Shown: positions 19,364 through 20,422 of the stretch, piece after piece
Position numbering within the stretch: the first letter of the stretch is position 1
How the letters are laid out: the number at the start of each line of letters is the position of its first letter
Source of the DNA: a virus
Taxonomy: Duplodnaviria; Heunggongvirae; Uroviricota; Caudoviricetes
DNA: 21,924 nt
Reading direction: 5' to 3' (one strand)
IMG/VR virus record: IMGVR_UViG_2609459833_000005
Location: 1-21,924 of that record
Program-made: the position numbers and the translations under genes
The notes under the pieces: generated by a model
Seen by the model: only the letters and a program-made list of their open reading frames with translations
Told to the model about the DNA's origin: nothing
The model's database searches: none

Positions 19364-20422
19364 ATGTTTAACACTGTAAAAATATCCAGTTGTGAGTTAA
19401 TCAACGCCGACTGCCTGGAATTTATCCGGTCGTTACCCGAAAATTCTGTTGACCTGATAGTCACGGACCCGCCGTACTTTAAAGTGAAGCCTGAGGGCTG
19501 GGATAACCAGTGGAAGGGCGACGATGATTACCTGAAATGGCTGGACCAGTGTCTTGCGCAGTTCTGGCGGGGGCTGAAACCTGCCGGAAGTCTTTACCTG
19601 TTCTGTGGCCATCGCCTGGCATCTGATATCGAAATCATGATGCGTGAACGCTTCAGTGTGCTGAACCATATTATCTGGGCGAAGCCGTCCGGACGCTGGA
19701 ACGGGTGCAACAAGGAAAGCCTGAGGGCGTATTTCCCCGCCACAGAGCGCATTCTGTTCGCGGAACATTATCAGGGGCCGTATCGCCCGAAAGATGCCGG
19801 GTATGAGGCGAAGGGCAGGGCACTGAAACAGCATGTGATGGCCCCGCTGATTTCTTACTTTCGTGATGCGCGTGCTGCCCTGGGGATAACGGCAAAACAG
19901 ATTGCTGATGCCACAGGAAAGAAAAACATGGTGTCGCACTGGTTCAGTGCCAGTCAGTGGCAGCTGCCGAACGAAAGTGATTATCTGAAATTACAGGCGC
20001 TGTTTGCCCGGGTGGCAGAAGAGAAGCATCAGCGGGGTGAACTGGAAAAGCCCCACCACCAGCTGCTGGAGACGTATACTTCACTGAACCGGCAGTATGC
20101 GGAACTGCAGAGTGAATATAAGCTTCTGCGGCGGTATTTTGGCGTGACGGCGCAGGTGCCGTACACGGATGTGTGGACGCATAAACCGGTGCAGTACTAT
20201 CCCGGGAAACATCCGTGCGAAAAACCGGCAGAAATGCTGCAGCAGATAATCAGTGCGAGCAGTCGTCCGGGTGACCTGGTTGCAGATTTCTTCATGGGGT
20301 CGGGTTCGACAGTCAAAGCCGCGATGGCGCTGGGGCGTCGTGCAACTGGCGTTGAGCTGGAGACTGAACGTTTTGAGCAGACGGTCAGGGAAGTACAGGA
20401 TTTAGTCAGTCAGAATGGATGA
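19364..20422 (+). CDS. Phage DNA methyltransferase (amino-methyltransferase, N6-adenine or N4-cytosine; beta-class motif order)
   Basis: 352-aa ORF; motif IV DPPY (LIVTDPPYF) near the N-terminus and AdoMet-binding motif I (DFFMGSGSTVKAAMALGR) near the C-terminus. Confidence 0.8.
   Translation: MFNTVKISSCELINADCLEFIRSLPENSVDLIVTDPPYFKVKPEGWDNQWKGDDDYLKWLDQCLAQFWRGLKPAGSLYLFCGHRLASDIEIMMRERFSVLNHIIWAKPSGRWNGCNKESLRAYFPATERILFAEHYQGPYRPKDAGYEAKGRALKQHVMAPLISYFRDARAALGITAKQIADATGKKNMVSHWFSASQWQLPNESDYLKLQALFARVAEEKHQRGELEKPHHQLLETYTSLNRQYAELQSEYKLLRRYFGVTAQVPYTDVWTHKPVQYYPGKHPCEKPAEMLQQIISASSRPGDLVADFFMGSGSTVKAAMALGRRATGVELETERFEQTVREVQDLVSQNG

Follow-up and report, generated by a model that had tools for sequence, protein, structure and literature searches.

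A probable orphan adenine methyltransferase of the M.EcoGI/M.EcoGII family and its likely place in a lambdoid late operon

The methyltransferase gene

The subject of this analysis is a DNA methyltransferase gene in a Caudoviricetes virus, IMG/VR record IMGVR_UViG_2609459833_000005, of which positions 1 to 21,924 were analysed (the window, 21,924 nucleotides in all). A first-pass annotation, made from the letters of the DNA alone, had placed an open reading frame (ORF) for a beta-class amino-methyltransferase at 19364-20422 on the plus strand, and this ORF was borne out exactly: it encodes 352 amino acids (aa), and its ATG at 19364 is the first possible start downstream of an in-frame stop. The gene and its main parts are as follows.

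19364-20422 (+): methyltransferase coding sequence, 352-aa ORF, M.EcoGI/M.EcoGII family (Pfam PF01555 and alignment to M.EcoGII)
19466-19477 (+): motif IV, D35-P-P-Y38, residues 35-38; catalytic, binds the flipped adenine
19766-20158 (+): central region, residues 135-265, with predicted target-recognition helices and helical linker (AlphaFold2 model and published M.EcoGII model)
20291-20305 (+): motif I, F310-M-G-S-G314 (FxGxG), residues 310-314; binds S-adenosylmethionine (SAM)

The translation reads T-D-P-P-Y-F at residues 34-39 and D-F-F-M-G-S-G-S at residues 308-315. Since DPPY precedes FxGxG, the protein has the beta-class order, with motif IV N-terminal and motif I C-terminal, as the annotation had it. 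Alpha-class orphans such as the M.HaeV/Hia5-like enzymes and the Dam of 933W/VT2 are likewise phage-borne adenine methyltransferases thought to counter restriction, but they carry FxGxG at the N-terminus and DPPY at the C-terminus, belong to another Pfam family and have GATC or BA specificity; an alpha-class Dam-like identity was rejected, the motif order in the window protein being reversed. The Pfam profile PF01555 (N6_N4_Mtase) matches residues 29-340 with 219 of its 221 positions (1-219), at E=2.6e-42 and 145.7 bits against a cut-off of 26.7, which is far beyond chance. NCBIfam, PHROG and PADLOC agree with Pfam in calling a DNA methyltransferase, the full-length MTase_II model of PADLOC matching at E=4e-162.

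The AlphaFold2 model of the protein was computed from an alignment of 46 sequences of limited diversity (74-94% identity), and is of medium confidence overall (averaging 69.8 in pLDDT, the predicted local distance difference test); the blocks of the core score 80-94. In Foldseek the core of the model matches M.BceJIV, CcrM, M.MboIIA, M.RsrI, M1.HpyAVI and N4-cytosine enzymes at E=2.6e-14 to 1e-9, with TM scores of 0.6-0.7 against solved beta-class structures when normalised to the targets. As for an inactive catalytic motif, which the annotation had suggested looking for on an alignment, all motif residues are intact and invariant among the 46 homologues, both the DPPY of motif IV and, around motif I, D308, F309, F310, G312, S313, G314 and S315.

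Membership of the M.EcoGI/M.EcoGII family

The annotation did not recognise the family to which this enzyme belongs, although its class assignment, the late-operon position and the idea of a role against restriction were supported. The protein is identical to KDZ58330.1 / WP_032270693.1 (an exact sequence match in the collection) and falls in a 90%-identity cluster with 5,932 member sequences. Aligned with M.EcoGII (GenBank EGT69837.1; sequence taken from Supplementary Table S1 of PMC11551740), it is identical at 327 of 349 positions (93.7%) with only two one-residue gaps. This figure sets a minimum, since the reference was read by machine from a PDF and contains at least three apparent misreadings. 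Four versions of it corrected by hand gave no exact match in the collection, and the best tblastn match of the machine-read sequence among the phages was only 93.7%, so that M.EcoGII itself is absent from the phage collection. M.EcoGI and M.EcoGII differ from each other at 16 of 349 positions (95% identity) and are both non-specific (PMC5778455), and homologues in O111 strains at 92-94% similarity are predicted or listed as non-specific as well (PMC6602927). Because the identity that we found nears that between M.EcoGI and M.EcoGII and that of the O111 homologues, we place the window protein in the same family. The reading that we hold very probable, along with the late-operon mechanism set out below, is that the gene codes for an N6-adenine methyltransferase of the beta class, an orphan belonging to the M.EcoGI/M.EcoGII family.

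M.EcoGII comes from a prophage of E. coli O104:H4 C227-11 and is sold as EcoGII methyltransferase. It has the same DPPY and FxGxG motifs, target-recognition domain (TRD) and linker, and is likewise a prophage-borne orphan; it is 349 aa long, whereas the window allele has 352 (three more C-terminal residues) and about 20 substitutions, among them G70 for V70. By published descriptions, M.EcoGI, M.EcoMV (prophage Phi4 of EC958) and M.Eco95JB1I-II are of the same family, prophage-encoded, non-specific or predicted to be so, and without transcription or activity in lysogens, but are other alleles on other prophages.

Megablast found relatives at roughly 85% nucleotide identity or more in 1,980 of 5,426 complete E. 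coli genomes, where a single genome can hold as many as seven copies, and in 157 phage records, mostly of Stx2-converting phages. The best phage match is 1720a-02 (97.6% nucleotide identity), a phage that the M.EcoGII paper names as carrier of a very similar methyltransferase (PMC5778455). A scan of one genome per species gave 80 loci across the Enterobacterales with relatives at 62-99% identity. The family is biochemically characterised and in commercial use (footprinting and MadID-type methods), and hundreds of phage records annotate it. The gene encodes an already known and very common prophage enzyme; as a finding it is genuine but unremarkable. The name that NCBI gives the product, "site-specific DNA-methyltransferase", misleads for this family.

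The long central region

The first-pass annotation had put about 200 residues between the motifs and had seen in them a large internal insertion. The spacing from Y38 to F310 is in fact 271 residues, and the centre is truly long. The 312 residues matched by Pfam cover a 221-position profile, leaving about 90 residues extra, and the unaligned middle, taken from the boundaries of phmmer local alignments against solved structures, is 165 aa as against 72 in M.BceJIV and 139 aa as against 40 in M.RsrI. By these comparisons the centre exceeds that of the small solved beta-class enzymes by some 90-100 residues; M.BceJIV, CcrM, M.MboIIA, M.RsrI and M1.HpyAVI share the motif order and the Rossmann core, but are sequence-specific and have shorter centres.

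Nevertheless, we reject an insertion into an otherwise contiguous domain, since the long centre occupies the normal target-recognition position of beta-class enzymes, in which the TRD always sits between motifs IV and I (PMC7544214). What had been taken for an insertion corresponds to that region plus a charged linker already known for M.EcoGII. The published AlphaFold2 dimer model of M.EcoGII has a four-helix helix-turn-helix (HTH) TRD at 160-237 together with the charged linker, which is without counterpart in the site-specific relative M.PflMI and is proposed to bind nucleic acid independently of sequence (PMC11551740). In our model the centre is all-helical (helices 146-173, 177-184, 190-193, 204-223 and 231-255, lying between the two core halves), a predicted layout that agrees with the published description, and the alignment to M.EcoGII is ungapped across residues 130-270. 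When residues 130-270 alone were searched against 1.84 billion representative proteins, only 160 clusters matched at E<=1e-3. In most full-length proteins among them (about 330-400 aa) the match falls at approximately residues 125-280; in a few longer proteins it falls at another place, and many of the matches are short fragments. Since the matches lie mostly at the same place in full-length relatives, the central module is best seen as a family-specific recognition region rather than a mobile insertion.

Position in a late operon

Upstream of the gene we find the following features.

16805-17863: DUF968/HNH gene, upstream of Q
17864-18229: RusA gene, upstream of Q
18226-18798 (+): Q-type antiterminator gene (DUF1133 / weak Phage_antitermQ; phrog_753, E=1.8e-74; PF06576, E=4e-104); the gene caller places its start at 18238
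18862-18895 (+): hairpin plus T7, first intrinsic terminator after Q (-21.9 kcal/mol, z=-5.5)
19016-19213 (+): conserved 65-aa ORF (phrog_331; NCBI "TrmB family transcriptional regulator")
19200-19227 (+): second intrinsic terminator, 7-bp stem GCCTTCA/TGAAGGC with loop GTCC (19200-19217), then TTTTTTATTT
19233-19363 (+): conserved structured leader RNA (alignment of 53 leaders)

The first terminator hairpin has 15 bp, with an A-tract on its 5' side and T7 on its 3' side, and is shaped like a bidirectional terminator; hairpins followed by T7, with differing stem sequences, stand at the same place in eight loci with six Q types. At the site of the second terminator most aligned leaders have a variable GC-rich hairpin with a T-run, which is weak or interrupted in several of them. 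The methyltransferase gene is the first sizeable gene of the late operon, preceded by the 65-codon ORF.

The order Q, hairpin-T7, 65-aa ORF, terminator, leader and methyltransferase, followed either by transfer RNAs (tRNAs) and a moron or directly by holin and lysozyme, is kept in SfV, mEp460, Stx2 phages and prophages of Salmonella, Klebsiella and Pantoea, where it occurs under three other Q families. In the isolated phages SfV and mEp460 the series runs Q, small ORF, methyltransferase, holin, endolysin, spanins, without tRNAs or moron; in Stx2 phages tRNAs and stx2AB follow the methyltransferase, whereas in the window tRNAs and a TerB moron do. SfV orf48, mEp460 gp53 and the "DNA methylase" of Stx2 phages (1720a-02, phiP27 and Stx2a/c/d phages) are the same gene in the same cassette, the counterparts in E. 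coli phages having 85-98% nucleotide identity to the window gene. The same gene series runs on to holin and lysozyme in E. coli GE3, and the small ORF precedes the methyltransferase in nine of ten further E. coli contexts. From this synteny the gene appears to lie in a lambdoid late operon, upstream of the lysis genes and on the same strand as the late genes. What this analysis itself shows is the membership of the family, the intactness of the motifs, the fold, the order of the genes and the terminators.

Consensus and relaxed scans found no sigma-70-like promoter between the terminators and the methyltransferase ATG. In SfV and the Pantoea locus, the interval from Q to the hairpin-T7 holds TTGCAT-17 nt-TAAGAT-TTTTCC-AACGATGGG, i.e. 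a lambda-like late promoter with an AACGAT pause element. Its counterpart in phage lambda, TTGACT-17-TAAATT-TGACTC-AACGATGGG, has the same geometry, TTGACT-17-TAAATT and AACGATGGG being the late promoter of lambda and the sigma-70-dependent pause element in Q antitermination. A cassette placed behind a late promoter and two terminators would explain why members of this family are silent in lysogens and why their constitutive expression is harmful (see below). The late transcript that the annotation had proposed is thus upheld as to position, downstream of Q and the terminators, and as to conserved synteny; that it depends on Q at this locus is what one would expect from the anatomy and from the published silence in lysogens.

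We considered the late leader of 933W, mapped experimentally from promoter to terminator (PMC7547250), as a template for the window and rejected it, as the two leaders are not homologous; apart from the tRNAs, their promoter and the final 110 bp of the methyltransferase gene, nothing aligns. In 933W (NC_000924, 20969-21080) those last 110 bp stand directly past the mapped late terminator, about 950 bp of the 5' part having been lost. This remnant looks like a deletion scar of an ancestor that carried the gene, and since 933W-type Stx2 phages lost the first ~950 bp, the gene must be dispensable for laboratory phage growth.

Two further observations concern the region between Q and the cassette. 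At 18955-18990 (+), upstream of the small ORF, the motif CTTGCTG-N10-12-AGAGTTAT-NN-GT-N-TGTCA is invariant in all eight loci compared, whichever the Q family; its spacer is variable and it matches the sigma-70 consensus poorly. Several E. coli prophages have genes on the opposite strand inserted upstream of the small-ORF cassette (L101, 897-2228; L095-L100, 1-2255); these are either a KAP-family NTPase gene or a gene for an NA37-family protein along with a 408-aa ORF. The insertion lies between Q and the cassette where Q is visible (L101). These insertions represent a second moron or defence insertion site in the late leader region.

Proposed function and its alternatives

In vitro, M.EcoGII methylates up to 96-99% of adenines, in any context; it acts on single-stranded DNA too (PMC5778455, PMC11551740), and also on single-stranded RNA and RNA:DNA hybrids (PMC5778455). 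Its methylation blocks many restriction enzymes, and its authors propose that phages use it to overcome restriction, partial methylation being argued to suffice (PMC5778455). Family members are silent in lysogens, giving neither a methylation signal in single-molecule real-time (SMRT) sequencing nor a reverse-transcription PCR product (PMC5778455, PMC4659465), and constitutive expression of an M.EcoGI/M.EcoGII-type enzyme is harmful (PMC5778455).

With these properties the window enzyme would work as follows. A split Rossmann-fold core (about residues 1-134 and 260-352) would bind SAM through FxGxG and the flipped adenine through DPPY, while the long central helical region, an HTH-type bundle with a charged linker, would bind nucleic acid without reading bases. 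Probably acting as a homodimer, the enzyme would methylate adenine whatever the surrounding sequence, both in double- and single-stranded DNA and, less strongly, in RNA. Transcription from the late promoter would, in a lysogen, halt at the two terminators and the toxic enzyme would stay off; after induction, Q-modified RNA polymerase would read through, so that the methyltransferase is made late, replicating and packaged phage DNA becomes partly modified with N6-methyladenine (m6A), and restriction of types I, II and III is blunted in the next host. The methylation of progeny DNA against host restriction that the annotation had put forward is therefore a published proposal of the M.EcoGII authors (PMC5778455), and the benefit to the phage would follow from it. 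As the first sizeable late gene behind two terminators, the gene offers a concrete explanation for the published paradox of silence and toxicity. One would expect methylomes of such lysogens to show no motif, and no signal at all unless the prophage is induced. For this reason, the lack of an attributable methylation motif, by which the annotation would have judged its own claim, misfires as a test: because characterised M.EcoGI/M.EcoGII members methylate adenine in any context, a motif-free result is what an active family member should give.

Several points weigh against this picture. The non-specific activity, lysogen silence and toxicity of the window allele would be carried over from the literature on its relatives. 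The allele has G70 (nucleotides 19571-19573) where at least 90% of the 46 homologues and M.EcoGII have V, at a helix end before the strand LKPAGSLYLF (FWRGLKPAG here, FWRVLKPAG there). The ATG has no Shine-Dalgarno sequence before it (GCTTAATGATCCATG) and follows the structured leader, and therefore translation of the methyltransferase may be limited or regulated. The late promoter for a DUF1133-type Q was not located, a consensus scan of 18200-21000 having found none and a relaxed scan only weak candidates near the Q stop, and the window stops short of the lysis genes. Plasmid DNA heavily modified by M.EcoGII transforms E. coli 4-5 orders of magnitude worse (PMC5778455), such that extensive self-methylation might cost the phage, the net benefit being assumed. 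As a caveat to the anti-restriction role, M.EcoGII-modified DNA is a substrate of m6A-dependent type IV enzymes (PMC11037411). Our literature search found no study that measured m6A in virions of such phages.

The loss in plasmid establishment, which argues against maximal self-methylation, also speaks for the alternative that the main target is something other than phage DNA, such as RNA (m6A in phage or host transcripts), host DNA during takeover, or the timing of replication or packaging. The activity of M.EcoGII on single-stranded RNA and RNA:DNA hybrids points the same way, as does co-transcription with the lysis genes, which very late in infection would leave little time to modify all genomes. 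However, the RNA activity of M.EcoGII is about 90-fold below its DNA activity (V0 0.12 vs 11.12; PMC11551740), partial methylation has been argued to be enough against restriction (PMC5778455), and late expression coincides with genome packaging. We therefore regard another main target as unlikely, and the protection of phage DNA as the better account.

Alternatively, the gene could be inert cargo, i.e. an inactive allele, or one left unexpressed by a defective prophage. G70 in place of a nearly invariant V could indicate this, M.EcoGII was described on a "cryptic" prophage (PMC5778455), the deletion in 933W-type phages attests to dispensability, and in one context an insertion sequence (IS) element has inserted. 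Nonetheless, the reading frame is full-length and every motif residue is intact; synonymous codon changes outnumber non-synonymous ones against two close relatives (18:8 and 8:5); the gene is kept in isolated plaque-forming phages (SfV, mEp460) and across the Enterobacterales down to 62% identity; and integrase, repressor-like, replication and Q genes are all intact in the window. An inert gene is thus quite improbable, and an active enzyme the expectation.

Slightly less probable still is an orphan enzyme that modifies a defined sequence motif. The NCBI product name implies one, M.PflMI, the closest relative with a similar predicted TRD (the fold is reported as shared with M.EcoGII), is site-specific (PMC11551740), and of the roughly 20 differences from M.EcoGII five fall within residues 160-237. 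Yet the product name is generic for PF01555 proteins, the identity to M.EcoGII is at least 93.7% and gap-free across residues 130-270, M.EcoGI, about as far removed from M.EcoGII, is non-specific all the same, and the charged linker that M.PflMI is missing is present in the window protein. These comparisons favour non-specific methylation.

The annotation's other suggestion was a mark of self for a defence system. The idea that phage or lysogen DNA is so tagged for a system linked to the gene is very hard to sustain: PADLOC does hold a full-length MTase_II model for the family, and some Stx2 phages carry a separate restriction-modification system, EcoGIII (PMC6602927), but the neighbours (Q, the 65-aa ORF, tRNAs, TerB and DUF3927) include no PADLOC match and no endonuclease or defence gene, an enzyme silent in lysogens cannot maintain a mark, and a mark set in any context carries no discriminating information. 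A type II restriction-modification methyltransferase was rejected as well, there being no cognate restriction endonuclease ORF on either side.

The small ORF and the structured leader

The 65-aa ORF and the leader are the only parts of the locus that might repay further work. In 62 of the 84 loci with enough flank, the methyltransferase has a homologue of the ORF 116-200 nt upstream, and among E. coli, Salmonella, Klebsiella and Pantoea the ORF is 80-86% identical, as compared with only 75-78% for the methyltransferase. It has no Pfam match, and its structural model is of low confidence (pLDDT 69) and has no significant match in the PDB; its "winged helix/TrmB" label, possibly apt, goes back to source names and two precomputed PF17782 matches. 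We considered lambda orf-64 as a homologue, which has the same position, and rejected it, as there is no sequence similarity. The TGA stop of the ORF (19211-19213) falls within the terminator hairpin at 19200-19217, and therefore its translation could interfere with termination there.

The leader that follows is about 130-150 nt long, has 79-84% nucleotide identity across genera and is present even at loci without the small ORF. Its helices (+) are as follows.

19236-19240/19308-19312: H0
19242-19252/19260-19270: H1
19273-19282/19292-19301: H2
19313-19319/19325-19331: H3
19334-19340/19350-19356: H4a

Across the 53 leaders, 88.6% of cells are paired in the H0-H4 structure, compared with 26-39% when the partners are slid by 1-3 columns; the structure was derived from the same sequences, which inflates the percentage paired but not the count of double-sided changes. 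Such changes were seen at 16 pairs, as against 6.7+/-1.6 in shuffled alignments, and none of 500 shuffles reached 16. Nine of the 11 pairs of H1 have them, and one pair of H2 (alignment columns 62/86) appears as C-G in 27 leaders, A-U in 10, U-A in nine and U-G in six, with none unpaired; H0, H3 and H4 show little covariation. H1 is rich in G-U pairs, which would mismatch on the opposite strand, and therefore the structure belongs to plus-strand RNA. A pseudoknot near the start codon (H4b; 84% paired, little covariation) is too weakly supported for us to claim.

No Rfam family matched the leader at the gathering threshold, nor was anything credible found at E<=10, and the known SAM and S-adenosylhomocysteine (SAH) riboswitch classes, considered as candidates, are not matched. 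A covariance model built from the leaders finds the H1+H2 core in lambda (NC_001416, 45011-45135), between orf-64 and S, with 21.3 bits and E of about 3e-5 for a 1.5-kb search. There GUUUUG follows H1, which may serve as a terminator, perhaps one of tandem terminators. Since the H1+H2 core also stands upstream of S in lambda, we rejected a leader or riboswitch specific to the methyltransferase. The leader appears rather to be a general element of lambdoid late-operon leaders, with the methyltransferase sitting between it and the lysis genes. A pattern scan of viral contigs gave two loci only and is uninformative as to association, and a literature search, with the older lambda literature outside its reach, found no description of the element.

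The cassette of 65-aa ORF, stop-containing terminator hairpin and covarying leader travels with the methyltransferase whatever the Q family upstream. One may speculate, although we consider it rather doubtful, that it forms a regulatory circuit, not described so far, which holds a toxic non-specific methyltransferase in check or sets its timing. Possible forms are that translation of the small ORF modulates read-through, that the leader gates translation, or that the small protein or the enzyme itself binds the leader. If this were so, the H1/H2 core would be a general and so far unnamed RNA element of lambdoid late operons. In any case, the conserved small ORF and the structured leader are candidate regulators of late-operon expression in lambdoid and Stx phages.

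Downstream region and other features of the window

Past the methyltransferase the window contains the following.

20425-20453 (+): promoter-like TTGCAG-17-TATTAT, directly past the methyltransferase stop and 10 nt before the first tRNA
20463-20714 (+): three tRNA genes, CAT (tRNA-Ile in RefSeq relatives), Arg-TCG and Arg-TCT
20729-20755 (+): intrinsic terminator past the tRNAs; a terminator in the annotation of 933W too
20885-21316 (+): TerB-domain moron, at the position of stx2AB in Stx2 phages
21313-21477 (+): DUF3927 gene, at the moron site

The promoter-like site aligns with, and is homologous to, the putative tRNA promoter "pT" annotated in 933W, and a primary start site mapped upstream of the tRNAs in strain Sakai (PMC7547250) is consistent with it. 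The window is thus an stx-negative relative of Stx2 phages, like PPyecE_EH1910.

Three small-RNA matches were also observed. Downstream of the moron, at 21543-21748 (+), there is a full-length Rfam match to the small RNA STnc100 (143 bits, E=4e-32). In the early region, 7335-7386 (-) matches the small RNA DicF (62 bits), and in the nin region, 16033-16207 (+) matches the sok antitoxin RNA (118 bits) and adjoins a hok-family ORF (HOK_GEF).

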